Source: a virus
Taxonomy: Duplodnaviria > Caudoviricetes
Virus record (IMG/VR): IMGVR_UViG_3300027278_000003
Reading direction: 5' to 3' (one strand)
DNA: 64,000 nt
Below are positions 11,018-58,581 of this stretch, piece by piece. Below the pieces are notes generated by a model. That model saw only the letters and a program-made list of their open reading frames with translations, was not told the DNA's origin and did no database searches. The position numbers and the translations under genes are program-made. Position 1 is the stretch's first letter; every line of letters starts with the position of its first letter.

Positions 11018-11034
11018 ACAAAGGGTAAAAGACT

Positions 11035-12162
11035 ATGTCAGTATTGAACACTGAAAACAAAAAACATCACACTGAAGCAATGGCTTTTCTAGATGAAGGG
11101 CTAGGTATGCAGCGTTATGATGTTATGAAGTATAAGCAATTTGATAAGCTAACAGAGAAGCAATTAGGCTTTTTCTGGCAACCGCAGGAAGTTGATGTTA
11201 GTAAAGATAGTAAAGACTTTAAAGACTTAACACGTCATGAGCAGCATATCTTTACCAGTAACCTAAAGCGTCAAATTCTACTAGACAGTGTTCAAGGACG
11301 TAGTCCTAACCTAGCACTATTGCCTATTGTCACACTTCCAGAAATTGAAACCTGGATTGAAACTTGGGCGTTTAGTGAGACAATTCACAGCCGCAGCTAT
11401 ACACATATTATTCGTAACATCTATTCAAACCCAAGTGTTGTTTTTGATTCACTACTGGATTCAAAAGAGATTGTTGACTGCGCTGGCGACATTAGTAAGT
11501 ATTACGATGACTTGATTGAATATAGCCAATGGTATCAGCTTCTTGGCGCAGGTACACATACAGTTAATGGCAAGAAGATCACAATTGATGAGTATGAACT
11601 GAAGAAGAAGATTTGGATGTGTCTGAACAGCGTTAACGTACTGGAAGGCATTCGCTTCTACGTAAGTTTTGCATGTAGCTGGGCTTTCGCAGAACTTAAA
11701 AAGATGGAAGGCAATGCAAAGATCATTAAGTTCATTGCTCGTGATGAAAACGTGCATCTTGCATCAACACAATACCTACTAACAAAAGTTATGGTAAAAG
11801 AAGACCCAGATTTTGCACGTATTTCAGAAGAATGCGAGGATGAAATCATCCAGATGTTCGTTGATGCTGTTGAGCAAGAAAAGCAGTGGGCACATTATTT
11901 GTTTAAAGATGGCTCAATGATTGGTTTGAACGCTGAACTGCTAAATAATTACATCGAGTGGATTGCATGTAAACGCATGACAGCACTTGGGCTAAAATGC
12001 CCATATACAGTGCCACAAGCTAACCCGTTGCCCTGGACACAGAAATGGATCAGCGGCGCTGAAGTACAGGTTGCACCACAGGAAACAGAAATTAGTAGTT
12101 ATATTATTGGCGGCGTCAAGAAGGACGTTGGCGAAGATACATTTAAAGGATTTAGTCTATGA
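11035..12162 (+). CDS. nrdB: class Ia ribonucleotide reductase beta subunit
   Basis: FFWQPQEV, ETIHSRSY, EGIRFYVSF, RDENVH motifs. Confidence 0.97.
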   Translation: MSVLNTENKKHHTEAMAFLDEGLGMQRYDVMKYKQFDKLTEKQLGFFWQPQEVDVSKDSKDFKDLTRHEQHIFTSNLKRQILLDSVQGRSPNLALLPIVTLPEIETWIETWAFSETIHSRSYTHIIRNIYSNPSVVFDSLLDSKEIVDCAGDISKYYDDLIEYSQWYQLLGAGTHTVNGKKITIDEYELKKKIWMCLNSVNVLEGIRFYVSFACSWAFAELKKMEGNAKIIKFIARDENVHLASTQYLLTKVMVKEDPDFARISEECEDEIIQMFVDAVEQEKQWAHYLFKDGSMIGLNAELLNNYIEWIACKRMTALGLKCPYTVPQANPLPWTQKWISGAEVQVAPQETEISSYIIGGVKKDVGEDTFKGFSL

Positions 12163-38671: not shown

Positions 38672-38986
38672 ATGGGAGACGTAGTTGAACTATCAACGAA
38701 AGTAACATCTGCGGCAATGCCTTGGATAGCACTGTTGTTTTCGATTGTTGTTACAATTTGGATAAAAGATTGGGCTACCAACCTAGCAAAGGGTTGGAGT
38801 TTTTTAAAAAGCCCAGCATTTAATCCGGGCGATAAGGTCTACCTAGACGGTGAACCTGCGATGATTATCTCTATTGGATTAACTAAGACCATTTTTGAGA
38901 TAGAGCGAGATGGCAAAACGGTATGGAGATACATACCAAATCATCGAATAGATTTTGTGAAGATAGAAAAGATAGTAGATAAGTGA
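38672..38986 (+). CDS. MscS-like transmembrane plus beta-domain fragment
   Basis: TM helix then FNPGDKVYLDGEPAMIISIG..IPN. Confidence 0.6.
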   Translation: MGDVVELSTKVTSAAMPWIALLFSIVVTIWIKDWATNLAKGWSFLKSPAFNPGDKVYLDGEPAMIISIGLTKTIFEIERDGKTVWRYIPNHRIDFVKIEKIVDK

Positions 38987-39651
38987 TGTTAAATTTCTGG
39001 AACTGGCCACGACGAAGCGATGAAAAAGCGATTGAAATCGAAAGTCCAGTTGAGGAAATAGAGAATGACACAACTCACTATCTTTTCATTCACGGCGCAA
39101 ATCAGTCTAGGCTTTCTTGGAACTGCATCATACACTTGTTGCAACCACAAAATTATACAACGCTAGAATACAACACCAACAATCGATTCTTTGACAATCT
39201 AGACATGCTTTCAGAACAGATTGCAAACATAGATGTAAAGATGTTTATAGTTGGACACTCACTTGGTGGTATTTACGGTCTACATCTTTACAATCTACAC
39301 AGAGACAAGTTTAAAGGTGCAGTTACGGCAAGTACCCCATATGGTGGAAGTCGAACCGCAGACTGGGCGAAATATATGGTCCCAGGTTACCCTTTATTCA
39401 AAGAAATTGGCGTTAGAGCAAAGCCAATTTCAGAACTAAAGAACATCAAAATTGAAATCCCTTGGACGCAAATCGTTACAACACGTGGTGCAACGCCGTG
39501 GCACGGCGGCGCAAACGATGGGGTTGTTACTTATGATAGTATGACCCTACGTGACGATATGCAGTATATAGAAGTTGCTGAAAATCACTATGAAATCCTA
39601 GCGTCAGACGATACAGTAGAAATAATAAAAAAACTTGCAACAAAAACTTGA
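38983..39651 (+). CDS. alpha/beta hydrolase
   Basis: FIHGAN, GHSLGG nucleophile elbow, NDGVV, NH. Confidence 0.85.
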   Translation: MMLNFWNWPRRSDEKAIEIESPVEEIENDTTHYLFIHGANQSRLSWNCIIHLLQPQNYTTLEYNTNNRFFDNLDMLSEQIANIDVKMFIVGHSLGGIYGLHLYNLHRDKFKGAVTASTPYGGSRTADWAKYMVPGYPLFKEIGVRAKPISELKNIKIEIPWTQIVTTRGATPWHGGANDGVVTYDSMTLRDDMQYIEVAENHYEILASDDTVEIIKKLATKT

Positions 39652-41225: not shown

Positions 41226-41573
41226 ATGAACTACGAATTCGACACCGCGATCAATGAACTTTTGAACACGATCAAATCTGACTATTATCGTTACACTTCG
41301 CGCAACGGCACCCGCGAACTCACTGACATTAACAAGCGTATGATTGACGAATTCAATGCCGAACTTTCTGTTGAAGAAGGTCGCAAGTATGTAAAAGTGA
41401 TCAAAGGTGGTTCTGTTTGGGGTTTCATTGTCAAAGCAGACGACAAGAAATTCAAAGCAGGTGACATTCTGAAAGCTGCATCGTGGGCTTCTCCTGCAAA
41501 GAACAAAGCGCGTGGCAATATCCTTGAAGGCAACTTCTCTTGGGTTCAGTGGACTGGTCCTGCATATCTCTAA
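41226..41573 (+). CDS. conserved early phage protein
   Basis: 115 aa; GDILKAASWASPAKNKARGNI. Confidence 0.7.
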   Translation: MNYEFDTAINELLNTIKSDYYRYTSRNGTRELTDINKRMIDEFNAELSVEEGRKYVKVIKGGSVWGFIVKADDKKFKAGDILKAASWASPAKNKARGNILEGNFSWVQWTGPAYL

Positions 41574-41606
41574 TAAATAAAAACACTAAAGACTAAGGAG
41601 AATAAC

Positions 41607-41930
41607 ATGTCTGCAATTGAATATGAAAACAGCGGTGATGTAGATATTGTAGGTACTTCATTGATGGGGTATATCGGAACATCATACAATGAACTAGAAG
41701 TCGCTTTTGGAAATCCAACCTACTACTATGCTGAAGGTGCCACAACTGTGGAATGGGTTCTGCAATTAAAAGTACCAAATGGTGGCGACTTCGACTATGT
41801 AACCGCTACGATCTATGACCGCCACGAGGATTTCACACCACTGCAAGATAAAGACAAAGAAGGTGTTTGGTATATTGGCGGGTTTGAACGTGCATCAGTG
41901 GATGCAGTATATATGGCAATGGGACGTTGA
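41607..41930 (+). CDS. hypothetical protein
   Basis: AAGGAG RBS. Confidence 0.65.
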   Translation: MSAIEYENSGDVDIVGTSLMGYIGTSYNELEVAFGNPTYYYAEGATTVEWVLQLKVPNGGDFDYVTATIYDRHEDFTPLQDKDKEGVWYIGGFERASVDAVYMAMGR

Positions 41931-42157
41931 AAATGCAAATTGAAGGTTTGACTTCGGAGCAAGTAGAACTACTTGATAAAATGTGGTCGATAGATACTCA
42001 TACCGAGTTGTCAGCATGGTTTAACACGTTAACTGAAAAAAAACACCAAGAGGCAATGGTTCTTCTAGAGTTGATTGAACTTGCGGCGATTGATGATCAA
42101 GTAGATGAAGACCAAGACCTAACCATCGCAAAACTGATGTTGAATAGCATTCTCTAA
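41927..42157 (+). CDS. hypothetical protein
   Basis: TTG start overlapping previous stop. Confidence 0.55.
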   Translation: MKMQIEGLTSEQVELLDKMWSIDTHTELSAWFNTLTEKKHQEAMVLLELIELAAIDDQVDEDQDLTIAKLMLNSIL

Positions 42158-42174
42158 TTTTCATAAATACTAAT

Positions 42175-42870
42175 ATGAAAATTTATGAGATTGTTTCAGA
42201 AGCAAAACTAGAACCAGACTACGATTTCTTAGCTCAAGTTGAGGAAATCGTTGATGATGCTCTGGAAGAATATGCAGAATTCCTAGCAGATAATGACGAC
42301 AAAGACGACATTGATGAACTGGAAGAAATCCTAAATTCAAACAACTATGATGAATTACCAATTGAATTCATCGCTGACCATCACCCGCGCAAGGACCCAG
42401 ACGAATGGCTTAGTGCCGCGGCAGACTGGGATCCAAAAGAAGGTAAGAGCGTAAGAGTATTCTTACATGCTAAAAATCTTGAAGGTGTATATGGTCCACA
42501 AACATTCAAAAAAATTCTAATGCGTATGTTAGCCCATGAAACAATTCACTGGGGACAATACGATAAATTTGACCCGAAAGTATTGGACACTTACAAGAGT
42601 GGTTATATGAAGGGTGTAGAAAAAAAGAAGTCAGGCGGAACTGACCGTGACCTAATGCGTATGTATTTGCGTGATCCACACGAATTAATGGCATATGCAC
42701 ATGACCTCGCGGATGAAATGCGTGATACTGACAATCCTGAGGATGCACTACGCAACCCAGAGAAATATATTAAAGAACTGCCTGTATATCAGCGTTTCCG
42801 TCAGAGTTTTCCACGTGACGCGAAACAAATCAAGCAATTGATGAAATATACAGCAGGATACTTTAATTGA
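42175..42870 (+). CDS. late protein with HExxH zincin-like motif, probable head-internal protein
   Basis: Late box at 42163; MKIYEIVSEAK start; LAHETIH and ELMAYA. Confidence 0.55.
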   Translation: MKIYEIVSEAKLEPDYDFLAQVEEIVDDALEEYAEFLADNDDKDDIDELEEILNSNNYDELPIEFIADHHPRKDPDEWLSAAADWDPKEGKSVRVFLHAKNLEGVYGPQTFKKILMRMLAHETIHWGQYDKFDPKVLDTYKSGYMKGVEKKKSGGTDRDLMRMYLRDPHELMAYAHDLADEMRDTDNPEDALRNPEKYIKELPVYQRFRQSFPRDAKQIKQLMKYTAGYFN

Positions 42871-42934
42871 TTGCGCAAGTAGAAAACGATGCAATTTTGA
42901 ACAAGCGCCAGATCAAAAAACTCTACGAAATGCA

Positions 42935-43357
42935 ATGAATACTCTAACAGCAAAACAACAGAAAATCACCCGAACTCTGTTTCAACTTGCAAAAGACAAT
43001 GAGACTGCAACAAGAGCGAAACTTGTTGCAGCCGTTGTGTATAAAAATCAGATTATTAGTTTTGGTTTCAACAGCAAAAAATCACATCCATTTGTCATTC
43101 CATTTCAAAAGAATGAAGACGCAATCTATCTACATGCAGAGACAGACGCAATCAAAAACGCATTGCGTACCATTGGTGTAGATCAACTTGCGAAATGTGA
43201 CTTATATGTCGTGAGAGCAAAATACACAGACAAAAATAGATCAAATGCGCAACTTGGAATGGCAAAACCATGTAAAGGGTGCGCAAAATGCATCAGTCAG
43301 TTTGGGGTCAAGCGCGTTATCTATTCGACTGATGAACAAAGCTATGCATTTTTGTAA
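42935..43357 (+). CDS. zinc-dependent cytidine/dCMP deaminase-fold protein
   Basis: HAE..PCKGC. Confidence 0.8.
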   Translation: MNTLTAKQQKITRTLFQLAKDNETATRAKLVAAVVYKNQIISFGFNSKKSHPFVIPFQKNEDAIYLHAETDAIKNALRTIGVDQLAKCDLYVVRAKYTDKNRSNAQLGMAKPCKGCAKCISQFGVKRVIYSTDEQSYAFL

Positions 43358-43399
43358 TATCTACAGTTAATTCTACTATATCTTGTGTCTAAATACATA

Positions 43400-43497
43400 T
43401 GTAGGCATGACGCCTACACTAAAGATGGTGCGCCCTGCACCATTCTCTAGTCCTCTTCGCCAACTGACCCGGTAGTCTAAGACTATCGGGTCTTTTT
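43400..43497 (+). ncRNA. putative late small RNA: two hairpins, anti-SD linker, terminator
   Basis: TAAATA at 43390; TGTAGGC/GCCTACA; ATGGTGC/GCACCAT; TCCTCT linker; GACCCGGTAGTC-TAA-GACTATCGGGTC-TTTTT. Confidence 0.55.
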
Positions 43498-43548
43498 GTT
43501 AATATACGACAATTCTATCACCAACATGCTAAATAAGTTTAATACAAA

Positions 43549-43640
43549 TAGACGAAGCCCCTTCTGAGTTAGTAGTTGGCCCGCCGGGCAATACAACTCA
43601 GAGGTCTTCTAATAGATAATGGGGCATAGACCCCATACAT
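43549..43640 (+). ncRNA. second putative structured small RNA
   Basis: TAAATA at 43530; TTCTGAGTT/AACTCAGAG rod capped by GCCC-GCC-GGGC; ATGGGG/CCCCAT hairpin. Confidence 0.45.
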
Positions 43641-43712
43641 TCTATAGGTATTATCGTTTTGGCGAACGAGGGAAATAAAAATTCAATGCAAGCGGATGTA
43701 ATCTGCATTGAC

Positions 43713-43741
43713 AATCTTCGCCATTTAGATTATATTAATAG
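43713..43741 (+). promoter_or_regulatory. sigma70 promoter of putA
   Basis: TTGACA-N17-TATATT. Confidence 0.65.
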
Positions 43742-43755
43742 TAATTGAGGCGAAT

Positions 43756-46608
43756 ATGAAGTGTTATCCACATAATGAGTATTACAGAGTTGAGGAAGCG
43801 GAGATACTTCCTAAACTAATTTTGGCTACACGAATTGCCAAGACTGAAAGAGAACAAATTCTTGCAGCGGCAACTGAAATACAGTCAAAATTAAATGAAA
43901 CTCACTATGTTCACAAAGTTATGAAAGCGTACAATCTGTCTGGTACAGAGGGTATGGCACTTATGACATTGTGCGAAGCACTTCTACGCACACCAGATGT
44001 TGAAACCCGCGACAAACTTATCAAAGAAAAACTAAGCCGCGCACAGTGGAATCAGATTGCAGAAAATTCATTCTATGCAACAATCTCAGGTATCGCATTG
44101 ACAAAAGCACAGAGTTTTGCAGCATATGACACTGTTGTGAAGCGCATGGGTTGGCCAACAGTAAGAACGATGGTCGAAGAAGTAGTCAAAGTGATGGGCA
44201 CCATCTACGTGATGGGAGAAACGATCACAAAAGCCATAAAAAAGAAACAAGTAGACTATTCTTATTCGTTTGATATGCTAGGCGAAGCAGCATTGACTTG
44301 GGAAGACGCAAATGCATATTACGAAAAGTACATTGAAGCCTCTACACAATTCAAAGATTCAATATCTGTAAAACTCAGTGCAATCCATCCACGATATGAA
44401 TTGCGTAACTATCAAGACGTTGTTCAAACCCTTGTTCCCCGCCTTGCAGCAATTGCAAGAGTGTGTGAAGAACATGGCACAACTATGTTTATTGACGCAG
44501 AAGAAAGTTACAGACTTGATCTTAGTATTATGGTACTTGAAGAACTGCTAAAGACACACCGATTTAAAAAGAAAACTATCGGATTCGCAGTACAAGCATA
44601 TCAAAAACGTGCGTTTTGGGTAATCGACACGTTAGAAAGCATTGCAAGTGAAGCATCAACACAAATTGCTGTTAGACTTGTCAAAGGTGCATATTGGGAC
44701 ACTGAAATTAAACTTGCACAACAGCAAGGATTGCACTACCCAGTATTCACACGTAAAGAATTCACAGATATTTCATATCTTGCATGTGCAAGAAAACTAA
44801 TGCAATCTAAATTCATTAGTCCAGCATATGCGACACACAATACATTCACCGTGGCAGCCATTTATCACTACAACACAGATATAGGAGGTGATTTCGAATT
44901 TCAGAAATTATATGGCATGGGGAACGGTCTATTCGACCACATAAAAGAACATTACGATGCTAGTGTTCGTGTTTATGCTCCCGTAGGTGAATATAAAGAC
45001 CTGCTTGCGTATCTTGTGCGCAGACTTCTAGAAAATGGAGCAAACACAAGTTTCGTATTTAACCAGCAAGTAGTTGATCCTTTCGTTGAAGCAAAGCAGG
45101 TAAAGGACAACTTGCCATCTTATCTAGATTTATATGGTAAGAGAAAGAATTCGAACGGATATGATCTAACTGATGTAGACAAAATCATGTCGATACCACA
45201 TTCCGAGACAGTAGATTTCATAAATCGTGAAGGATACAATTTAGAAGAGTCTCTGGCGGTATTAACGTCTAAAACGAATAGTTGGAAAGCAAAGACATTT
45301 GCAGAACGAAAGTCGGCAGTACTTGCGTATGCTGATTATCTTGAAGAACATCTAATAACCGCAGCAAAGACAATCACAGATCACGCATATAAAACATTTC
45401 CAAACTCTATCGCAGAAGTACGTGAAGGTATCGACTTCATTCGATATTATGCAGAGGTTGCGGAACAGATGTATGATACTAAAGATACTGAATTGCGCGG
45501 TTACACTGGCGAGTACAACAAAACATCATACGAAGCACGTGGAACATGGATGGTGATTTCTCCGTGGAACTTCCCATTTGCTATTATGGTTGGGCCTGTC
45601 ATTGCGGCGTTGTTGGCGGGCAATACGGTCTTAGTTAAATCTGCGCCACAGACACAAGTTGTAGCAGACATAACAATTGGATGTATGTTAGTTGTGGGTA
45701 TACCGACGGATGCAATACAATTCTGTGATCCAAATCCAAGTGAAGCAGAAAAAGCATTGCGCGATGAACGCATCAATGGAGTTACGTTTACTGGTTCGCA
45801 TCCAACAGCAAAGCGTATACAATGTGTTCTTGCCGAGCGCGATGGGCCTATCATTCCGTTCATTGCAGAAACGGGTGGTATTAACTGTATGATTGCAGAC
45901 AGCACTTGTTTGCCAGAACAATTAGTCAAAGATGTACTAGTTGGAGCATTCGACAGCGCGGGACAGCGTTGTTCTGCTACTCGCTTCTTGTTTGTACAGC
46001 GTGACAACTCTGAAATCATTCTGAAAATGCTAAAAGGCGCAATGAAAAATCTTGTGCTTGGCTTCCCCGACGATTTAAACACTGATGTGTCACGCGTTAT
46101 TGATGGCGCAGCGTATCAGCGCATACAAGAACGTATCGCAGTATTAGAAGAACATGAAACTCTTATTTCTACTAAAGGTAGAAATGGTGCAGAACTACCA
46201 AAGCTAACAGTTGCGCCAAGCGCGTATCTTGTTTCTGATTACAAGAAGTATTTTGACAAAGAAATCTTTGGTCCGCTCTTACATGTGTATGTATATGACG
46301 CAGATGAATTAGATGAAATTATAGAATTTATGAATGCTACTAAGTTTGGACTAACGCTAGGTATACATTCTCGCATTTCATCGTTGTATGAACACATTTC
46401 GTCAAAACTAAACGTAGGAAACATATACGTCAATCGTGATCAAGTTGGTGCAGTTGTAGAAACGCATCCATTTGGTGGTGTTGGACTGTCTGGCACAGGA
46501 CCAAAAGCTGGTGGACCTGATTATCTACGTTCATATGTATGGGAAAAGCATATCTGCATCAATACAACTGCTATTGGCGGCAACACTGTTCTACTTTCTT
46601 CAAAATGA
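43756..46608 (+). CDS. putA: bifunctional proline dehydrogenase / glutamate-semialdehyde (P5C) dehydrogenase
   Basis: FDMLGEAA, SVKLSA, IDAEE, RLVKGAYWD, ATHN, YLVRRLLENGAN; ALDH part FTGS, ETGG, SAGQRCSA, EIFGP, FGGVGLSGTG. Confidence 0.95.
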   Translation: MKCYPHNEYYRVEEAEILPKLILATRIAKTEREQILAAATEIQSKLNETHYVHKVMKAYNLSGTEGMALMTLCEALLRTPDVETRDKLIKEKLSRAQWNQIAENSFYATISGIALTKAQSFAAYDTVVKRMGWPTVRTMVEEVVKVMGTIYVMGETITKAIKKKQVDYSYSFDMLGEAALTWEDANAYYEKYIEASTQFKDSISVKLSAIHPRYELRNYQDVVQTLVPRLAAIARVCEEHGTTMFIDAEESYRLDLSIMVLEELLKTHRFKKKTIGFAVQAYQKRAFWVIDTLESIASEASTQIAVRLVKGAYWDTEIKLAQQQGLHYPVFTRKEFTDISYLACARKLMQSKFISPAYATHNTFTVAAIYHYNTDIGGDFEFQKLYGMGNGLFDHIKEHYDASVRVYAPVGEYKDLLAYLVRRLLENGANTSFVFNQQVVDPFVEAKQVKDNLPSYLDLYGKRKNSNGYDLTDVDKIMSIPHSETVDFINREGYNLEESLAVLTSKTNSWKAKTFAERKSAVLAYADYLEEHLITAAKTITDHAYKTFPNSIAEVREGIDFIRYYAEVAEQMYDTKDTELRGYTGEYNKTSYEARGTWMVISPWNFPFAIMVGPVIAALLAGNTVLVKSAPQTQVVADITIGCMLVVGIPTDAIQFCDPNPSEAEKALRDERINGVTFTGSHPTAKRIQCVLAERDGPIIPFIAETGGINCMIADSTCLPEQLVKDVLVGAFDSAGQRCSATRFLFVQRDNSEIILKMLKGAMKNLVLGFPDDLNTDVSRVIDGAAYQRIQERIAVLEEHETLISTKGRNGAELPKLTVAPSAYLVSDYKKYFDKEIFGPLLHVYVYDADELDEIIEFMNATKFGLTLGIHSRISSLYEHISSKLNVGNIYVNRDQVGAVVETHPFGGVGLSGTGPKAGGPDYLRSYVWEKHICINTTAIGGNTVLLSSK

Positions 46609-47213
46609 TAAACACAAGTGACGAATATGAAGTTTGGAGATATGTTGACCCAGAAGATTTATGGGTATTTGACAAACTTATTTTAGCACGTAGATTGGGA
46701 TATACCTGCGGCCCAACCGGAATACCTGTACCAAATCCTGGAGTTTATATTGTTAGGCCTTGTGTCAACGCAATGGGTCTAGGGTTAGGAACAAAACGTG
46801 TATTCATTGATAATAACACTGAACACTTGCCTGTCGGACACTTTTGGATTGAAGAATTCGATGGACCTCATTTAAGTGTTGATTATCATTGGGGAGAGCA
46901 GGTTCTTTGCGTTCAAGGGTTTAAACCACATGAAGAATTTATTCGTTGGGCAGCGTGGAGCAAAGTAGATTTTTCAAAAGAGTTACCCGACATTATTAAA
47001 CCTTTTGCAAAAAAGTATGAATGGATTAATTGTGAATTTATAGGAAACAAGGTTCTTGAAATACATTTTAGGCGTAATCCAGACTTTGATTATAATAATT
47101 CGATATTCATACCAGTCTGGAATGAAGAAATGAAAGACAATCCAAGATATAATACAATGCAGTTTATAGAATGCCCAGATGTAAACGGAAGAATAGGAGC
47201 ATTTGTTAAATAA
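46605..47213 (+). CDS. hypothetical protein, possibly ATP-grasp-like
   Basis: YIVRPCVNAMGLG..EEFDGPHLSVDY. Confidence 0.5.
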   Translation: MINTSDEYEVWRYVDPEDLWVFDKLILARRLGYTCGPTGIPVPNPGVYIVRPCVNAMGLGLGTKRVFIDNNTEHLPVGHFWIEEFDGPHLSVDYHWGEQVLCVQGFKPHEEFIRWAAWSKVDFSKELPDIIKPFAKKYEWINCEFIGNKVLEIHFRRNPDFDYNNSIFIPVWNEEMKDNPRYNTMQFIECPDVNGRIGAFVK

Positions 47214-47276
47214 TACTTGTAAATTGTATTATAATAGTGTATTATGAAATATAACCTAAAACAATAAGAGGACATA

Positions 47277-47684
47277 ATGACAAAACAAGTTGATCTAAAC
47301 GCATACCGTGATTTCGTTGCAGAAGTAACGAGTGATGCAAGTAATGAGCTAGAAGTAATGATTGCACGACTTCGTGAACTAAACGAAACTGTGAATATCT
47401 CACTCCTAATGACAGGTGCGATTGGTATGAGTGCAGAAGGTGGCGAGTTTGCAGAAGTTGTCAAGAAATGTGTATTCCAAGGTAAACCAATGAACGACGA
47501 AACAGTCTTTCATATGAAGCGTGAACTTGGTGACATTGCTTGGTATTTTGTGAATGCGTGTCGTGCGATTGGTGAAGACCCAAATGAAGTGATTGCAGAG
47601 AATGTGCGTAAACTCGAAGCACGTTATCCCGGTGGATCATTTGATGCATTCTATTCAGAAAATCGCAAAGACGGCGATCTATAA
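47277..47684 (+). CDS. mazG: MazG-like nucleotide pyrophosphohydrolase
   Basis: EGGEFAEVVKK..ELGDIAWY..NVRKLEARYP. Confidence 0.85.
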   Translation: MTKQVDLNAYRDFVAEVTSDASNELEVMIARLRELNETVNISLLMTGAIGMSAEGGEFAEVVKKCVFQGKPMNDETVFHMKRELGDIAWYFVNACRAIGEDPNEVIAENVRKLEARYPGGSFDAFYSENRKDGDL

Positions 47685-47711
47685 TAACATTAAATAAAAT
47701 AGAAAATAGCA

Positions 47712-49076
47712 ATGGAAGAAAAAAGCAAAACGTGGTGCCTTGCACCTTGGACCGAACTGGCTATAAAAGAATACCGTGATGGGAAACTTACATCTGCATG
47801 GCCATGTTGTATGATGGGCAACTATGGAGAGCTTAATCCATTAGGCATTGATAATATTGAAAATCTGACACCAGATGAAATTTTTAATCATCCAGCCATG
47901 GAACAGTTACGACAGGACGGGTTGAATGGTGTCAGAAACCCAGCATGTAAAGTATGCTGGGATCAAGAAGATAAAGGGTTAGATTCTTTCAGGCATATGT
48001 CAAATCATGCTAGATACGGCGGGGACCATCACAACGGTAACAACATACCACATTATTCTGATAACCCAGAAGAAATGGGAATGTATGTATTAGATGTTAC
48101 CACTTCAAATAAATGCAACCTTGCGTGTAGAATGTGTACACCATCTGCAAGTGACCTTCTTGAGAAAGATACAAACTACTGGAAAGATAATGGCATTTAT
48201 GTGCAGACCTTAAATGCCATTAGAAGATGGTCCCCGTCGATGCCAGTCGGTATAGTAGGGACCTCTCAGTGGGATTGGTTGATGGAAAACACACACAAAA
48301 TAAAGGTGTTGAAGCTATCTGGTGGTGAACCATTGTACGATGAAAAAGTTGTCAGATTGCTACAAAGATACATAGACACTGGTAACGCATCAGATACCAC
48401 CCTTCATTTTCACACAAACGCAACTATTTTCAGTAAAAAGAATATAGAATTGTTGTCTAAATTTAGAATGAATGAACACGTGTTTAGTATCGATGGATGT
48501 GGGAAGACATACGAATACATCAGATATCCTATGACATTTCAGAAACTTGAACGATCTATAAAAAACTTTTTAAATTCTTCGGTGCGTAGAACATCCGTTC
48601 AACAATATAGTATGGTTGTATCCGCACTTAACGTATTGAATATCGTTGATTATACTAAATGGATAGCAAAAATTAGCTCAGAATCTAACAACTTAACCGT
48701 CAGTGAAATACATTTTGCAGAAATGTATCCATTGAACGAGCGTGGGACTTCTCTTTGTAATCTTCCAGTGCATATACTTGAACATGCATTAGAAAAAATA
48801 GAAAATTATGTTGAAGAAGCCAACAGTTTGACAGATATCTCAAATCGTTCTTACGTTATTATAATGAAAAACATTGAAAGGATGATGAATAATCCGATAA
48901 TTTCTATAAAAAATGCGATTGAACATAATACATGTACCGAGAATAATGCAAAACGAATGTTGACAGAAATAACAGCTTTTGACAAATCTCGCAACCAATC
49001 ATATCGCGACTTTTTAGATCCGATGTTAATAGAATGGTTGGATTCGATAGAAGGGTCTATAACACCTGTTCTATAA
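47712..49076 (+). CDS. radical SAM protein with N-terminal SPASM/twitch-like domain
   Basis: CLAPW..PCC..CKVCW; CNLACRMC; SGGEP; SIDG. Confidence 0.85.
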   Translation: MEEKSKTWCLAPWTELAIKEYRDGKLTSAWPCCMMGNYGELNPLGIDNIENLTPDEIFNHPAMEQLRQDGLNGVRNPACKVCWDQEDKGLDSFRHMSNHARYGGDHHNGNNIPHYSDNPEEMGMYVLDVTTSNKCNLACRMCTPSASDLLEKDTNYWKDNGIYVQTLNAIRRWSPSMPVGIVGTSQWDWLMENTHKIKVLKLSGGEPLYDEKVVRLLQRYIDTGNASDTTLHFHTNATIFSKKNIELLSKFRMNEHVFSIDGCGKTYEYIRYPMTFQKLERSIKNFLNSSVRRTSVQQYSMVVSALNVLNIVDYTKWIAKISSESNNLTVSEIHFAEMYPLNERGTSLCNLPVHILEHALEKIENYVEEANSLTDISNRSYVIIMKNIERMMNNPIISIKNAIEHNTCTENNAKRMLTEITAFDKSRNQSYRDFLDPMLIEWLDSIEGSITPVL

Positions 49077-49148
49077 ATATACATACAGAATAATAGATTT
49101 CTAGCTGATAAATACAGATAGAGATTGATATATAAGAAGGCAGGTCTA

Positions 49149-49415
49149 ATGTTTCAAGAATATAAAAGTCTCTCCGACGAAGATTTGGACTCGAAAATGG
49201 AGAGTGTCATGAAGAAAATTCAAATGGCACATAGAATGGGCCACGATGTTGCAGTAGAACAGTTACAACATTTCTTAGAAATGATGCAACTTGAACTAAT
49301 GGAACGTAGTGAGAAAATGCGATTTAAAATGATCATAGATCGCACACCAGAGTCATTAATTATTGGAGAAGACGATGACACCAATGCATCAACCGGTTCA
49401 AACAAAAAAAGTTAA
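49149..49415 (+). CDS. hypothetical protein
   Basis: Late boxes upstream. Confidence 0.6.
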   Translation: MFQEYKSLSDEDLDSKMESVMKKIQMAHRMGHDVAVEQLQHFLEMMQLELMERSEKMRFKMIIDRTPESLIIGEDDDTNASTGSNKKS

Positions 49416-49749
49416 TCACGCATTCGTATTAGATGGGACAGATGTTGAAATCACACGTTTTGTAGAATACATCGATAGTGAGTGGTTAGGCGAATGGCAA
49501 GGATTACTAAATTTCTCCGATGTGAAATTTGATATAGGTCACGACACACTAATATTAACAACAGAAAGCGTCAAAGAGAACCTAGTCAAGTTTGCAACAA
49601 AACTAAGTTTGAGATTTCCGAAAATCTTTATGATGTACGAATTCTACACAGAAGATGAAGAAGATTTTCAACAAGGAACATTTTATCTACTAGCGGGTAA
49701 AATCACAACAGAGGAAGATGAACTTCTTCCTTTCTATAATGAGGTATAA
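49375..49749 (+). CDS. hypothetical protein
   Basis: GGAG RBS. Confidence 0.55.
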   Translation: MTPMHQPVQTKKVNHAFVLDGTDVEITRFVEYIDSEWLGEWQGLLNFSDVKFDIGHDTLILTTESVKENLVKFATKLSLRFPKIFMMYEFYTEDEEDFQQGTFYLLAGKITTEEDELLPFYNEV

Positions 49750-50427
49750 ATGTCTGATTTTGTATCAGTTAACAGTTATTCTACTTTTAAAGCACAATTT
49801 AGTGCAACAGTAATTCAAAGTGCGCCAATATTATTGAGCGACACATACGAAGTTGAAGTAGATTTCCTCTGGGCGGACATGGATCCGGCCAGAGGAAATG
49901 CAGCGTTCATGAAAATGCGCTATTTCCTAGAAGATGAACTGCATCAAAGCGTTCTTACTTATCCCCAAGCACCAATGGCAGTTAATGGTATTGAGAATAA
50001 CATTGTGTTGTTCCCATTTGTACCAACTAACGACATTATTGCAATGACACTACATGCAAAGTTGAATACAATTTGCGGACAGTATATTGAAATCATCAGT
50101 GTGCGTGTCGGCAGTAAGTATGCACAACCCAATCTCATATACACTTATGCAGATGATGAATATCCAGCAATGCCATCACTAAAAGACTTTATAGGTCTTG
50201 ACACAGATGAATATTATTATGATCAACCTTGGTGGTTCAGAAGTGATGCAACTACCGGAGAATTTGACACAAGTGACGATAAGGACTTGACAGACCCACC
50301 AGAACCTGATACTATACTAGATGATATAGAAAAAATGGTCATGGGGGAATTGAAACTCCGCGACGGCGATCAAGGCGGTGAAGTAGTTGACATTAAAGGA
50401 TGGAAACCAAAAATCATTGATGATTAA
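49750..50427 (+). CDS. hypothetical protein
   Basis: 225 aa, GAGG RBS. Confidence 0.65.
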   Translation: MSDFVSVNSYSTFKAQFSATVIQSAPILLSDTYEVEVDFLWADMDPARGNAAFMKMRYFLEDELHQSVLTYPQAPMAVNGIENNIVLFPFVPTNDIIAMTLHAKLNTICGQYIEIISVRVGSKYAQPNLIYTYADDEYPAMPSLKDFIGLDTDEYYYDQPWWFRSDATTGEFDTSDDKDLTDPPEPDTILDDIEKMVMGELKLRDGDQGGEVVDIKGWKPKIIDD

Positions 50428-50935
50428 AGATCAGTACAGTAGAGTACTGGTGAGCCGGCACGACCTTTACGAAATGTTATACAATGGTGTATCTATTGAT
50501 AATATTCGTGATGTAGAATGGCATGAAGACTTTGAAAAGTACAATAATGCAATCGCTCTGAACCATCTTTCAACTCCCCTAAAGGAACCACTCAAGAAAC
50601 TCAATCTTGATGTTTCAGAATTTCATGAGTCTAAACAGCGGGAATGGTTGATACCAGAAGAATATATGCAGATGGACATATATCAATACATTTTGGATAG
50701 AACACCTGATGTAGGGTTGGAACGAGTTGAAACAGAGTTAAAATTATACGATAAATATGGTTTAATGGACATCTTACGTGTATGTGTATACATCGTAGAT
50801 ACGTTTAAAAAGAATAGACTCATGTGGGGCGTAGGAAGGGGAAGTAGTGTAGCAAGTTATGTGCTTTATGTTATCGGTATTCACCGAGTTGACAGTATTA
50901 AGTACAATCTTGATATACATGAATTTTTGAAATGA
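50420..50935 (+). CDS. truncated DNA polymerase III alpha (DnaE)-like protein
   Basis: ERVETELKLY..WGVGRGSSVASYVLYVIGIHRVDSIKYNL; only 171 aa. Confidence 0.8.
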   Translation: MIKDQYSRVLVSRHDLYEMLYNGVSIDNIRDVEWHEDFEKYNNAIALNHLSTPLKEPLKKLNLDVSEFHESKQREWLIPEEYMQMDIYQYILDRTPDVGLERVETELKLYDKYGLMDILRVCVYIVDTFKKNRLMWGVGRGSSVASYVLYVIGIHRVDSIKYNLDIHEFLK

Positions 50936-53559: not shown

Positions 53560-53708
53560 TGACAAGACAACTCGCAGATTTTATCACTGCTGAAATTGAT
53601 GATTTAGGTGATCTAGTGATTACTTTTGATGATAATGATGAATATTTTGAAATGAGTGTTCCTGCACGTGATGTGCTTGAAATGCTACGGGAGTTTTTTG
53701 ACGAATGA
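53560..53708 (+). CDS. small acidic protein (about 49 aa; coordinates approximate)
   Basis: GTG start, ATGA overlap with clamp loader. Confidence 0.45.
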
Positions 53709-54634
53709 AAGAGCTATGGGTAGAAAAGTATCGTCCGAAATCTGTAAAAGATTACGTGTTTCGTGACGAAAAACAAAAGAAGCAAGTACAGTCATGGGTT
53801 AGTAGTGGTGCTATTCCACATTTGCTATTTTCTGGTGCTGCTGGTACTGGCAAGACCACACTTGCAAAAGTTCTGCTAAATGAACTTGGCGTTGACGGTG
53901 GCGACATTATGATGATCAACGCATCAAACGAAAACAATGTTGACACAATGCGAACAAAGATCAATGGCTTCGCAAGTTCCCTACCATTCTCTGGCGATTT
54001 CAAATATGTGCTACTAGACGAAGCCGATTATCTATCTCCAAACGCACAAGCGATTCTACGTAACATGATGGAAACATATAGTTCAACTTGTCGTTTCATT
54101 CTCACGTGTAACTATCCAAACAAAGTGATCCCTGCTATCCACTCCCGCTGTCAGGGTTATCACATTGAAAAACTAGACAAAGAAGAATTTATGGCACGTG
54201 TTGCAACTATTCTTATCAGTGAAGGTGTTGATCTAGACATTGAAACTCTGGACATTTATGTTGCTGCAACATATCCCGATCTACGCAAATGCACAAACAT
54301 GGTACAGCAAAGTGTCGTTGATGGCGTGCTACAAGCACCAGGTGCAGGAGAGAGTGGCGAGAGTGATTGGATTCTCGAATACGTTGCAATGTTCCAAATT
54401 GGTAATATTGCAGGCGCACGTAAGCTAATTGTTGAAAAAGCGCGGCCAGAAGAATATGAAGGTGTTTATCGTAAACTATATGAAAACATCACAGATTGGT
54501 TTGGGCCAGACGAAAAGACTATCGGGCGTGCATTACTTTGCATTCGTGACGGTCTAGTCAATCATGCACTTGTTGCTGACCCAGAAATCAATTTGAGTGC
54601 AACACTCCTTGAACTTCAATATATTGCGAAATAA
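53705..54634 (+). CDS. sliding-clamp loader AAA+ subunit (RFC small subunit/gp44-like)
   Basis: WVEKYRP, GAAGTGKTT, LLDEAD, SRC. Confidence 0.95.
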   Translation: MKELWVEKYRPKSVKDYVFRDEKQKKQVQSWVSSGAIPHLLFSGAAGTGKTTLAKVLLNELGVDGGDIMMINASNENNVDTMRTKINGFASSLPFSGDFKYVLLDEADYLSPNAQAILRNMMETYSSTCRFILTCNYPNKVIPAIHSRCQGYHIEKLDKEEFMARVATILISEGVDLDIETLDIYVAATYPDLRKCTNMVQQSVVDGVLQAPGAGESGESDWILEYVAMFQIGNIAGARKLIVEKARPEEYEGVYRKLYENITDWFGPDEKTIGRALLCIRDGLVNHALVADPEINLSATLLELQYIAK

Positions 54635-55374: not shown

Positions 55375-55814
55375 GCCGTATCTTAAAGAGAAAATTTCAA
55401 TCAATTCATAACATGCCATCATATAAAGTGATAGGCACCGTATCTCCTGAGATTATGAAAAAACTAACCGACCTCACTGTTAACAAAAACACAGAGGTAG
55501 CGCAAGAAATCGTTACTGCGATTACACAAGTGCTAAAAGCAAATATCACTGGTATGGCAGCAGATGCGTATGTTGAACCGTTCGAAACAGATTGGATCAA
55601 CCGTTTGAATTACGAAACTCCTACTGGTATTTTCTATTTGATTTCAGAGGGTGATGCTGATATCCAGTTCCCTAAAGAATCTGTAAAAATACAACCAGGA
55701 AAAGTTTATTTTGTGGATGAACGTCAAACATTTAAAATAAGTTCACCAAACAACACACGCGTGTGCTTAATGAGCGGACGTTTCACTTGGAACAAAGAGG
55801 TTCACGGAGACTAA
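55371..55814 (+). CDS. hypothetical protein (cupin-like)
   Basis: ATGA overlap. Confidence 0.5.
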   Translation: MSRILKRKFQSIHNMPSYKVIGTVSPEIMKKLTDLTVNKNTEVAQEIVTAITQVLKANITGMAADAYVEPFETDWINRLNYETPTGIFYLISEGDADIQFPKESVKIQPGKVYFVDERQTFKISSPNNTRVCLMSGRFTWNKEVHGD

Positions 55815-56617
55815 TGAAAAAGTTTATCGTTTCACTATTCGTTTCATTATTTGCAACGATTTTGTTTGCCGGTACTACCGGCGAACTACCAGTGGACGAT
55901 AAGCGCGGGTGGTGGTTTGAAACTATTGACTTGGATGCAAGAGATTACGCATATGATGTTGTCACCGATAATACTCGGAAAGGTGAGACCGGTCTGCGTT
56001 TTGAATTGCGCGATGGTGATTGCTATACCGCATATCCAGAAAATCCAAGCAGTGGTTGGGATGACTGCACCCGTGACCGTGAACGCAGTGAAATCCGTGA
56101 ACGTTGGAATCCAATTCTGGATAAGAGTGTTTGGTATGCATTTAGTATCTTCATTCCAGAAGATTACGAACCAATGTATCCAAAGCAAATCTTCTTCCAA
56201 TGGCACGGCGGTCCTGCACCAACAATCTACTATCATCTAAACGAAAATAAGTTTCATGTTGATATTCTAGCAGAGGTTGGACAGACCACTACACAATACA
56301 CATTTGGAGACAACATTCTCACACTCGGAGAATGGCATGACTTCGAAGTCAATATTGTTTGGAGTGCTAACGAACAAAATGGCAAGATGCTACTTTATGT
56401 AGACGGTGTGCGTCTTATCGAATATCGCGGTCCCACTATGCCACAAGAAGTTTATGATGCAGGCGAAGGTCCACAAGTAAAGTTTGGCATCTATCGTTCA
56501 CATCTGTCACGTTGGTCAGAAGATCGTCCGCACCCAACGCATGTTCTTTACTTTGATGAATATCGTCGTGGCTATAATCATACTGACGTTGATGTTGACA
56601 ATTACACAGGTGACTAA
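55814..56617 (+). CDS. exported polysaccharide-lyase-like beta-jelly-roll protein
   Basis: Signal peptide; ERSEI, IFFQWH, KFGIYR motifs. Confidence 0.7.
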   Translation: MKKFIVSLFVSLFATILFAGTTGELPVDDKRGWWFETIDLDARDYAYDVVTDNTRKGETGLRFELRDGDCYTAYPENPSSGWDDCTRDRERSEIRERWNPILDKSVWYAFSIFIPEDYEPMYPKQIFFQWHGGPAPTIYYHLNENKFHVDILAEVGQTTTQYTFGDNILTLGEWHDFEVNIVWSANEQNGKMLLYVDGVRLIEYRGPTMPQEVYDAGEGPQVKFGIYRSHLSRWSEDRPHPTHVLYFDEYRRGYNHTDVDVDNYTGD

Positions 56618-56976: not shown

Positions 56977-58581
56977 ATGAATATCAAACTTTTTAAATCG
57001 CTTGTTGCTACTACGTTTCTAGTATCCGCAGGCTCAGCGGTAATTGCAGGACCGACAGAAGTTCGACAAGTGCAGGCAATGCTAAACTTTATCGGATATG
57101 AGTCCGGTCCTGCGGATGGAGTCGCTGGTCGTCGTACTAACGCAGCGGTAGAGAAATTCTACCGAGATCGTGGTCAAGTATTTGACGGTACAATCGATGG
57201 TAATGAGGTGGACTTCATTAAACTAGAAGCAGAAGCAAAGGGTTATGCAACTCAAGAACTTTGGTCATCCGATACGATTAACAACTCGCAATCAAACTTA
57301 CCTTTATTTGTGAGCAATTATTACAATAATTTCCCATCTGGTGGGAATATGCGATTCCGTGAAATGTACGGCGGCACAAACTCTTGGGCGGCCGCTCTGG
57401 CAGATTTCGACTACGATGGTGATGGAATTCGTGATAAAGTTATCGCTGTAGTTGCAGAAGCGGATAACCGTTCAAAGCAGGAATATGGCGAATCAGACCG
57501 GGAATACGGTCTACGTGGACGTTGTGATGGTGAGTGTGAATTCTCAACCTTCTCTGGTGTAATTTTCCTTAAAGGGCAGGGGAATGGAGAGTTTCGTTAT
57601 GTTCCGGGTGCAATCGTTGAAAATCCCGATAATATGATCGAATACGGGCATCAGATCGAAACTGCTGATTTCAATGGCGACGGCAAACTTGATATTATTG
57701 TCACAGACCACGGACTAGACCACTGGCGCGACGATTTTGTTGGACGTACTTTAAAATATTTCTTGTCTCAGCCAGATGGGACATGGCGTGAAAGTTCAGC
57801 AACGCATATGAACGGTGGTCGCCATTGGCGTAACTTCAACCATGGTATTACAGTCGGTGATATTGATAGCGATGGCGACATCGATATCGTAGAAACATCA
57901 ATTGCGCGGAACAACCAAGCATACCTTTGGTGCCGCATTAATGACGGTGCGGGGAATATGACACCTCGCGCATGTGGTGGGCGTGGAACCGGTTGGGGTT
58001 TGGCAGCAGAGGACTTCGATGGTGACGGCTGTATTGACGTTGCTCAAGTAGGCACTGGCGGGGAACGTTATCACTTCACTGGGATCAATTGGGGTAACTG
58101 TAGCGGGCGATTTAATGGTGCTACGACACGCATTAATGACCACGATGGACGCAAGGACGACCCAAACAATTGGGAAGGAACTGTAAATGTTTGGTCACAC
58201 GACCTAGACGGTGATGGCGACAAGGATCTTATCGTAAGTCGTATTGGCACTTATTATGTGGGCGGCGCATTCCAGATCGTTGAAAATCTTGGAAACCGCA
58301 AATTTGAAGATCGCGGTATTTTTGTCTACAATGCTCCTCCGGAAACCGCAGCTGGCGTACGGTCATGTCACGATAATTCGGAAGCCAATCCGTGCAACCT
58401 AACAGTAGATCGTCTGTACTTTATTGATGTAAATAACGACGGTATCGATGATCTTGTTACTACAAGCGGCGCAGCACATGTAAACGGCTTGGTTTGGATC
58501 AATAACGGTAACTACGAATTTAATCAGACTTCGGCGCGTGATCTTCGTATTGCTCCCGCGATGCATCGTCGCGACGACTGA
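56977..58581 (+). CDS. exported protein: peptidoglycan-binding domain plus FG-GAP/VCBS repeats
   Basis: Signal peptide; VQAMLNFIGYESGPADGVAGRRT; repeats DFDYDGD, DFNGDGKLD, DIDSDGDID, DFDGDGCID, DLDGDGDKD, DVNNDGIDD. Confidence 0.85.
   Translation: MNIKLFKSLVATTFLVSAGSAVIAGPTEVRQVQAMLNFIGYESGPADGVAGRRTNAAVEKFYRDRGQVFDGTIDGNEVDFIKLEAEAKGYATQELWSSDTINNSQSNLPLFVSNYYNNFPSGGNMRFREMYGGTNSWAAALADFDYDGDGIRDKVIAVVAEADNRSKQEYGESDREYGLRGRCDGECEFSTFSGVIFLKGQGNGEFRYVPGAIVENPDNMIEYGHQIETADFNGDGKLDIIVTDHGLDHWRDDFVGRTLKYFLSQPDGTWRESSATHMNGGRHWRNFNHGITVGDIDSDGDIDIVETSIARNNQAYLWCRINDGAGNMTPRACGGRGTGWGLAAEDFDGDGCIDVAQVGTGGERYHFTGINWGNCSGRFNGATTRINDHDGRKDDPNNWEGTVNVWSHDLDGDGDKDLIVSRIGTYYVGGAFQIVENLGNRKFEDRGIFVYNAPPETAAGVRSCHDNSEANPCNLTVDRLYFIDVNNDGIDDLVTTSGAAHVNGLVWINNGNYEFNQTSARDLRIAPAMHRRDD

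Follow-up and report, generated by a model that had tools for sequence, protein, structure and literature searches.

A minimalist bifunctional PutA in T4-related jumbo phages and its probable role in burning host proline

The question

Why would a virus encode an enzyme that takes proline all the way to glutamate? The question is raised by a 64,000-nucleotide stretch of DNA from a Caudoviricetes virus (IMG/VR record IMGVR_UViG_3300027278_000003; we call the whole stretch the window), which carries a putA gene at 43756..46608 on the + strand. An earlier note on this DNA, made from the sequence alone, took the gene for a full-length bifunctional PutA and proposed that it is an auxiliary metabolic gene. 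We think it very probable that this is a genuine, functional, phage-borne type-A PutA of T4-related jumbo phages of marine or other aquatic bacteria, and that it serves to burn host proline. Below, we ask in turn whether the protein is what it appears to be, whether the gene belongs to a phage, how long it has been there, and what it could do during infection.

The gene encodes a type-A PutA

The gene is an open reading frame (ORF) of 950 codons with an ATG start and no internal stop. Its product scores 1006.3 bits against the NCBIfam equivalog for bifunctional PutA (NF008869, cut-off 747) and only 781 bits against the model for trifunctional PutA (NF008772, cut-off 1750), which does not place it in type C. 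Residues 7-948 align with residues 11-998 of the PutA of Bradyrhizobium japonicum (BjPutA, PDB 3HAZ; E 9e-199, about 42% identity). Both catalytic modules, one a proline dehydrogenase (PRODH), the other a dehydrogenase of L-glutamate-gamma-semialdehyde (GSALDH), lie on one chain with the arm, alpha-domain, and linker, colinear with the solved type-A PutA. (GSALDH is also named P5CDH, after 1-pyrroline-5-carboxylate, or P5C.) The parts of the gene are:

43756..46608, + strand: putA, minimalist (type A) bifunctional proline dehydrogenase / L-glutamate-gamma-semialdehyde (P5C) dehydrogenase, by NF008869 and the 3HAZ alignment
43909..44202, + strand: PutA alpha-domain, residues 52-149 (Pfam, 74.5 bits), aligning to the arm/alpha region of BjPutA
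44233..45057, + strand: PRODH (beta-alpha)8 barrel, residues 160-434 (Pfam Pro_dh PF01619, 277 bits)
PRODH motifs for binding flavin adenine dinucleotide (FAD) and proline: DMLGE, KLSA, DAEE, QAYQKR, RLVKGAYWD, ATHN, YAPVG, and LLAYLVRRLLENGAN
45271..46551, + strand: GSALDH/P5CDH module, residues 506-932 (Pfam Aldedh PF00171, 274 bits)

The Pfam name of the alpha-domain ('Pro_dh-DNA_bdg') is misleading, as this is not the ribbon-helix-helix (RHH) domain. The RHH domain is absent: there are only 6 residues ahead of the arm, and the C-terminus coincides with that of BjPutA. The earlier note had seen no N-terminal DNA-binding domain, and the alignment to the RHH-less BjPutA from residue 7 onwards, together with a score far under the NF008772 cut-off, bears this out. 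The window PutA therefore lacks autoregulation via the known RHH mechanism. The earlier note was also right that the protein is shorter than typical cellular PutAs. Seven deletions in loops or linkers, each of 4-15 aa, account for the gap of about 50 residues to the Bradyrhizobium enzyme (about 1000 aa); no domain was lost.

Both active sites look complete, as the earlier note had claimed from the catalytic motifs, including the cysteine of QRCS. In 71 members of the clade to which the window PutA belongs (described below), the key residues of the PRODH motifs are invariant and the remaining positions are at least 72% conserved. The invariant residues include the lysine of KLSA, the aspartate of DAEE, the tyrosine of YAPVG, and the Arg-Arg-x-x-Glu of VRRLLE. 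(Residues of this module were mapped to the E. coli and BjPutA numbering with the help of the 3HAZ alignment.) In the aldehyde dehydrogenase (ALDH) half, Asn605 (PWNFP), the FTGS NAD motif, Glu705 (ETGG), the catalytic Cys739 (GQRCSA, codon at 45970-45972), and EIFGP are invariant in the clade. Conservation extends to the C-terminal sequence, with GTGPKAGGP conserved and the block at 929-946 invariant.

We also built an AlphaFold model of the monomer from a phage-only alignment of 22 sequences. The model is of moderate quality (global pLDDT, the predicted local distance difference test score, of 66), with values of 80-93 in the PRODH part and of about 24 for residues 887-950. Its top Foldseek matches are BjPutA structures, at a template modelling (TM) score of 0.57, which adds little beyond the sequence match.

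The gene belongs to a phage

The earlier note reported phage genes on both sides of putA, and we find the same. The window consists of tightly packed, short, co-oriented ORFs with 15 tRNA genes, and the genes around putA that match PHROG families include:

8714-12162: class Ia ribonucleotide reductase (PHROG match), further upstream of putA
42935..43357, + strand: dCMP deaminase (phrog_174), next to putA upstream, bounding the cargo junction on the left
47277..47684, + strand: MazG-like pyrophosphatase (phrog_229, E 2.6e-46), next to putA downstream, bounding the cargo junction on the right
50387-50935: DNA polymerase III (Pol III) alpha-like fragment (PHROG match), downstream of putA
53705-54634: gp44-type clamp loader (PHROG match), downstream of putA

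Independent assemblies cross both ends of the gene. Run X13 is not among the runs flagged as possible sources of the window, and its Logan contigs tile positions 41500-49500 with zero mismatches. The X13 contig over 43308-44173 bridges the junction of dCMP deaminase and putA, and the contig over 45387-49500 bridges the 3' end of putA into MazG and past it. The same junctions are bridged in strains with 95-99% identity from an estuary (2021) and from an 'outdoor' metagenome (2023). In three further SRA assemblies, a PutA with 98% identity is flanked by dCMP deaminase and MazG. The window variant itself occurs in at least 13 marine runs. The earlier note had allowed for an assembly chimera; the bridging contigs speak clearly against one.

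The arrangement also recurs in more distant phages. In IMG/VR, ENA, and JGI contigs from unrelated samples, PutA lies among homologues of window phage genes. Gene order is kept in L001-L013 and L016, all recovered from independent samples (at least 10 syntenic loci); dCMP deaminase also neighbours PutA in L011-L012, and MazG follows PutA in L008-L013. In the syntenic contigs, PutA (64-80% identical) has changed less than most neighbouring genes (31-85%). Most directly, IMGVR_UViG_3300020469_003050 (G003) is a genome of 342,607 bp with direct terminal repeats (CheckV, 100% complete). PutA lies at 325.3-328.1 kb of this genome, whose T4-type major capsid gene (Gp23, 277 bits) is found at 194.7 kb.

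The composition of putA is that of the phage: its GC content (0.405) and its GC content at third codon positions (GC3, 0.315) lie within the phage distributions (0.394 +/- 0.028 and 0.327 +/- 0.041, respectively). Host contamination, the other concern of the earlier note, is countered by the gene order shared across metagenomes, by the complete genome G003, by the matching GC and GC3, and by the lack of a close relative in cellular genomes, to which we now turn.

The phage PutAs form a deep clade under purifying selection

In a large protein database, the window PutA belongs to a clade of about 70 protein clusters (at the 90% identity level) of 946-961 aa that are 62-98% identical and all metagenomic. 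Below this phage clade, identity falls abruptly to 43% or less for cellular PutAs. Among 185,579 prokaryotic species (one genome each), no genome exceeds 42% identity to the window PutA. When representatives at 50% identity were searched exhaustively, a single one stood for the whole clade, and the protein P0074 followed at 45%.

We inferred trees with the LG+G4 model (113 rows) and with LG+C20 PMSF (50 rows). In both, the phage PutA clade is monophyletic with support of 100 and sits on a long stem. The phage clade together with P0074, P0079 (discussed below), and P0122 is split from all sampled proteobacterial PutAs with branch support of 99-100. The comparison with bacterial PutA that the earlier note had called for thus gives a separate clade at full support, with no cellular genome above 42%.

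Of the cellular PutAs, P0122 (L097:10001-12952, 983 aa) alone groups with the phage clade. Its source is a gammaproteobacterium whose closest relatives are on contigs of 1.07-1.29 Mb. The branch of P0122 is very long (1.87), and in an approximately unbiased (AU) test, an all-phage clade without P0122 was not rejected (p = 0.41). Therefore, no donor can be named. The data are compatible with a single old acquisition of PutA, without demonstrating it.

The ratio of nonsynonymous to synonymous rates (dN/dS) was 0.092 for the pair with a 98%-identical relative; other unsaturated pairs gave 0.125-0.143. PutA has been maintained by selection in the phage lineage and was not picked up recently. The earlier note had also considered that the protein might be inactive; at the level of sequence, the invariant key residues in 71 clade members and the dN/dS of 0.09-0.14 argue against this. 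Judged by its sequence, then, the window protein is a type-A PutA with intact active sites that is selectively maintained in phages.

A second phage lineage has PutA beside another dehydrogenase

P0074 and P0079 are encoded on phage-like contigs (with an exonuclease of phrog_298 and a virion structural protein). As these contigs have several window genes in common, including MazG at 65%, PutA is carried by a second branch of this phage group too, one distant from the first. The second-lineage PutA is 43% identical to the window PutA. Directly upstream of it lies a 467-aa ALDH (L014:8595-9998; also in L015 and L098), which scores 696 bits against the equivalog for L-piperideine-6-carboxylate (P6C) dehydrogenase, just short of the cut-off of 730. 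This ALDH and PutA may form a phage module for the catabolism of cyclic imino acids or osmolytes.

The 3' end of putA is also a site of variation among close relatives:

46603..47207, + strand: 605-bp presence/absence insertion at the PutA stop codon; contigs of runs X14 and X18 join 46602 to 47208

The insertion holds an ORF (46539-47213) that matches phrog_3577 (E 5.7e-41), a family with no function assigned, and that has no Pfam match. It is absent in L011-L013; in related strains and in the 98% relatives, MazG follows PutA directly. The phrog_3577 ORF has homologues at other positions in L001 and L005. The insertion may be a small mobile gene.

The region upstream of putA

A gap of 398 bp precedes putA. 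Its elements, in order, are a hairpin, a promoter candidate, and a GAGG:

43466..43492, + strand: terminator-like hairpin with a 12-bp stem and a T tail, which closes the upstream dCMP deaminase unit
43708..43736, + strand: sigma70-like promoter candidate, TTGACA-17-TATATT with CTTCGCCA in the spacer; the best regional match (11/12)
43747-43750, + strand: GAGG Shine-Dalgarno sequence, 5 nt before the putA ATG

The hairpin is recognisable in the relatives L007 and L016, and the promoter candidate is kept in L011. The pattern T[TA]GA[CT]A..CTTCGCCA..TATATT is also kept in relatives with a PutA of only about 68% identity (L001, L002, L004, and L005). The earlier note had given putA its own sigma70 promoter. 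This stands insofar as the match is 11/12, a hairpin lies upstream, and the site is conserved in the relatives at about 68%, but such sites are as numerous in shuffled sequence as in the region (see below). With this proviso, the terminator-like hairpin and the sigma70-like promoter suggest that putA is transcribed as a unit of its own, probably by host RNA polymerase.

On the + strand, the 8-mer CTTCGCCA is restricted to the region upstream of putA. More precisely, CTTCGCC(A) has two + strand copies in the 64 kb, one beside the hairpin (43455-43462) and one in the promoter spacer (43716-43723), and each copy is conserved, in different relatives. CTTCGCC(A) is a candidate regulator site. Inspection of the putA promoter showed no GcrA-box (GANTC-type) feature.

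What PutA might do during infection

In established PutA biochemistry, a step using FAD and quinone is followed by passage of P5C, or glutamate-gamma-semialdehyde (GSAL), through a tunnel of about 42 Å to an NAD+-dependent step that yields glutamate (PMC5786444). We infer the same chemistry for the window PutA, from proline to glutamate with electrons going to quinone and NAD+. In the infected cell, the PRODH module would oxidise L-proline to P5C/GSAL on FAD, and two electrons would pass to the quinone pool of the host membrane. P5C/GSAL would be channelled through the tunnel to the GSALDH module, where GSAL would be oxidised with NAD+ to L-glutamate, making NADH. A jumbo-phage infection is long and costly, and in its course the host's proline pool could in this way supply respiratory energy, NADH, and glutamate.

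The most likely benefit to the phage would be the use of host proline as a source of energy and nitrogen and as an osmolyte. Proline is a common osmolyte and amino-acid reserve of marine bacteria and a labile source of nitrogen and carbon in the sea. A catabolic role is favoured by the P6C-dehydrogenase-like ALDH that lies directly upstream of PutA in the second lineage.

Several observations count against a functional PutA that burns host proline, or against parts of that proposal. First, PutA is not found everywhere in the phage group. In the contigs L099 (203 kb) and L100 (103 kb), dCMP deaminase directly adjoins MazG and there is no PutA on the contig; these phages are close to that of the window (MazG 84%, clamp loader 81%). 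So, PutA is dispensable cargo at this site, and as L099 and L100 are fragments, it could lie elsewhere in those genomes. Second, no glutamine synthetase, glutamate dehydrogenase, or asparagine synthase is encoded in G003 and three fragments, so nothing in the phage points to a sink for glutamate among these enzymes. Third, promoter-like sites in the region are not above chance (15, versus 15.1 in shuffled sequence), and no RNA run is among those listed as containing window sequence. Finally, the structure model, at its pLDDT of 66, does not resolve the C-terminal flap, with which each partner seals the other's tunnel in domain-swapped PutA dimers.

The alternative that best withstands the data is that PutA is active but serves to manipulate host physiology, for instance by lowering the proline osmolyte pool or through P5C or H2O2 signals that alter stress, defence, or the timing of lysis. 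PutA-linked H2O2 signalling is known in E. coli. In favour of this, the phage encodes none of the three glutamate-consuming enzymes named above, and the gene's own promoter candidate, with CTTCGCCA found on the + strand only upstream of putA, hints at specific regulation. However, the motifs for both half-reactions, for the tunnel lining, and for the cofactors are all conserved, which is easier to reconcile with conversion all the way to glutamate than with P5C being released. The second lineage, moreover, couples PutA with another catabolic aldehyde dehydrogenase. On balance, we consider a primarily manipulative role rather unlikely.

A shift of substrate to hydroxyproline, pipecolate, or another cyclic imino acid could account for the long stem of the clade and for its identity of 45% or less to any cellular PutA. 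The second-lineage neighbour that resembles L-piperideine-6-carboxylate dehydrogenase, an enzyme of the pipecolate/lysine pathway, also points this way. Yet the proline-binding residues are invariant, including the tyrosine of YAPVG, which is presumably the counterpart of an active-site tyrosine of E. coli PutA. That tyrosine reportedly enforces the choice of proline over hydroxyproline. The protein also exceeds the NF008869 equivalog cut-off by a wide margin, and we regard a changed substrate as very unlikely. Least credible of all is a chimeric assembly, contaminating host DNA, or a passenger gene in decay: this has in its favour only the prior suspicion that attaches to a large cellular-type enzyme in a phage contig and the contamination of the GenBank 'phage' records that match PutA, and it is contradicted by independent contigs over both junctions, at least 10 syntenic loci, a complete terminal-repeat genome with PutA, phage-like composition, a dN/dS of about 0.1, invariant active sites, and the lack of a close cellular relative.

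Proline catabolism by a functional phage PutA might be part of something larger. G003 encodes a 495-aa protein of the sodium:solute symporter family (SSF; L111:5639-7126, or G003:C1:45638-47125). A membrane transporter is unusual in a phage. We considered whether this protein is the proline transporter PutP and rejected the assignment, as it scores 38 bits against a cut-off of 515 and is far below every curated cut-off. It is very divergent and falls in a mostly viral SSF cluster (by atlas look-up); as a single-sequence query it recovers only near-identical contigs, and the window has no SSF homologue. One can imagine a phage-owned 'put' pathway in which the SSF protein imports proline or another osmolyte, PutA burns it, and the operator-like CTTCGCCA sets expression, giving a proline-scavenging virocell. 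We think such a pathway unlikely; if it did exist, the virocell would draw on dissolved organic matter.

Other features of the window

Several other genes of the window are unusual. Two tRNA genes, at 27745-27819 and 29456-29531, comprise one with anticodon CTA (of the amber-suppressor type) and a tRNA-His that has T at position -1 and A73 as discriminator, without the usual G-1/C73 identity. After MazG comes a 454-aa radical SAM protein (47712-49076) with a weak N-terminal SPASM-like match; it is missing at that position in most PutA-bearing relatives and has a counterpart of 24% identity in L099.

The gene at 55763-56617, near the replication genes, encodes a polysaccharide lyase (PF14099, 106 bits); that at 56977-58581, also nearby, encodes a 534-aa protein that combines FG-GAP repeats with a peptidoglycan-binding domain. 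These two may be involved in degrading the host envelope or capsule. A 222-aa alpha/beta-hydrolase (38983-39651) has weak matches to S33 and S9 serine peptidases, families that include prolyl peptidases. As it is also present in L099, which lacks PutA, no link to PutA is indicated.

Comparison with known systems

The earlier note knew of no characterised phage PutA, and our searches agree. A tblastn search of PutA against GenBank phages returned only contaminated or mislabelled records (at most 37% identity) and unrelated ALDHs. PHROGs v4 contains no PutA or PRODH, and the ALDH half alone matches a family of unknown function. In the searchable literature, including a marine jumbo-phage survey and its supplements, we found no report of a bacteriophage PutA or PRODH. 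The sole viral mention that we found is a 'proline dehydrogenase' homologue of giant viruses that infect haptophytes (PMC11953307). Automatic annotation at JGI already labels some proteins of the clade as PutA, and therefore the sequences are public, yet apparently undiscussed. Phage PutA is, in our view, a well-supported auxiliary metabolic gene of a widespread jumbo-phage lineage that is apparently unreported in phages. It would extend viral reprogramming to the catabolism of amino acids and to a direct feed of electrons into the host's respiratory chain.

By megablast, 20 kb of the window gave only a 95-bp MazG match to a cyanophage among GenBank phages. Comparison of clamp loaders (44-55% identity) places the window phage nearest, among cultured phages, to the jumbo phages PA5oct of Pseudomonas (55%), RsoM2USA of Ralstonia, Atu_ph07 of Agrobacterium, and Phosso of Sinorhizobium. 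These four have a T4-type replication module and genomes of 285-490 kb, and none has a tblastn match to PutA at E <= 1e-5.

Large T4-like phages are well known for auxiliary metabolic genes, such as psbA, talC, and phoH of cyanophages, the NAD salvage genes of KVP40, and the glutamine synthetases of 'moraphages' (PMC12619734). PutA resembles these in being a host-type enzyme that sits amid replication genes, is under purifying selection, and varies in its presence. It differs from known auxiliary metabolic genes in being unusually large and integrated, as it has 950 aa, uses two cofactors, and needs the host's quinone pool.

Among cellular enzymes, the trifunctional (type C) PutA of E. coli and Salmonella has the same two catalytic modules and the same chemistry, while the window enzyme lacks both its N-terminal RHH domain and its C-terminal ALDH-superfamily domain. 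The closest model is BjPutA, the model type-A enzyme (PDB 3HAZ, 4Q71-73, and 6BSN), which has the same order of arm, alpha-domain, PRODH barrel, linker, and NAD-binding and catalytic GSALDH domains, with a C-terminal flap that the window PutA probably has too. Like the window PutA, it has neither an RHH domain nor the extra C-terminal ALDH-like domain. The catalytic cysteine (C792 in BjPutA) corresponds to Cys739, and the tunnel aspartate (D779 in BjPutA) to Asp726. The window PutA differs from BjPutA in being phage-encoded and some 50 residues shorter, and in falling into a deep clade of its own, to which no cellular PutA is more than 42-45% identical. At 946-961 aa, the members of this clade are the shortest natural bifunctional PutAs seen here, and they could serve as a compact model for studies of substrate channelling.

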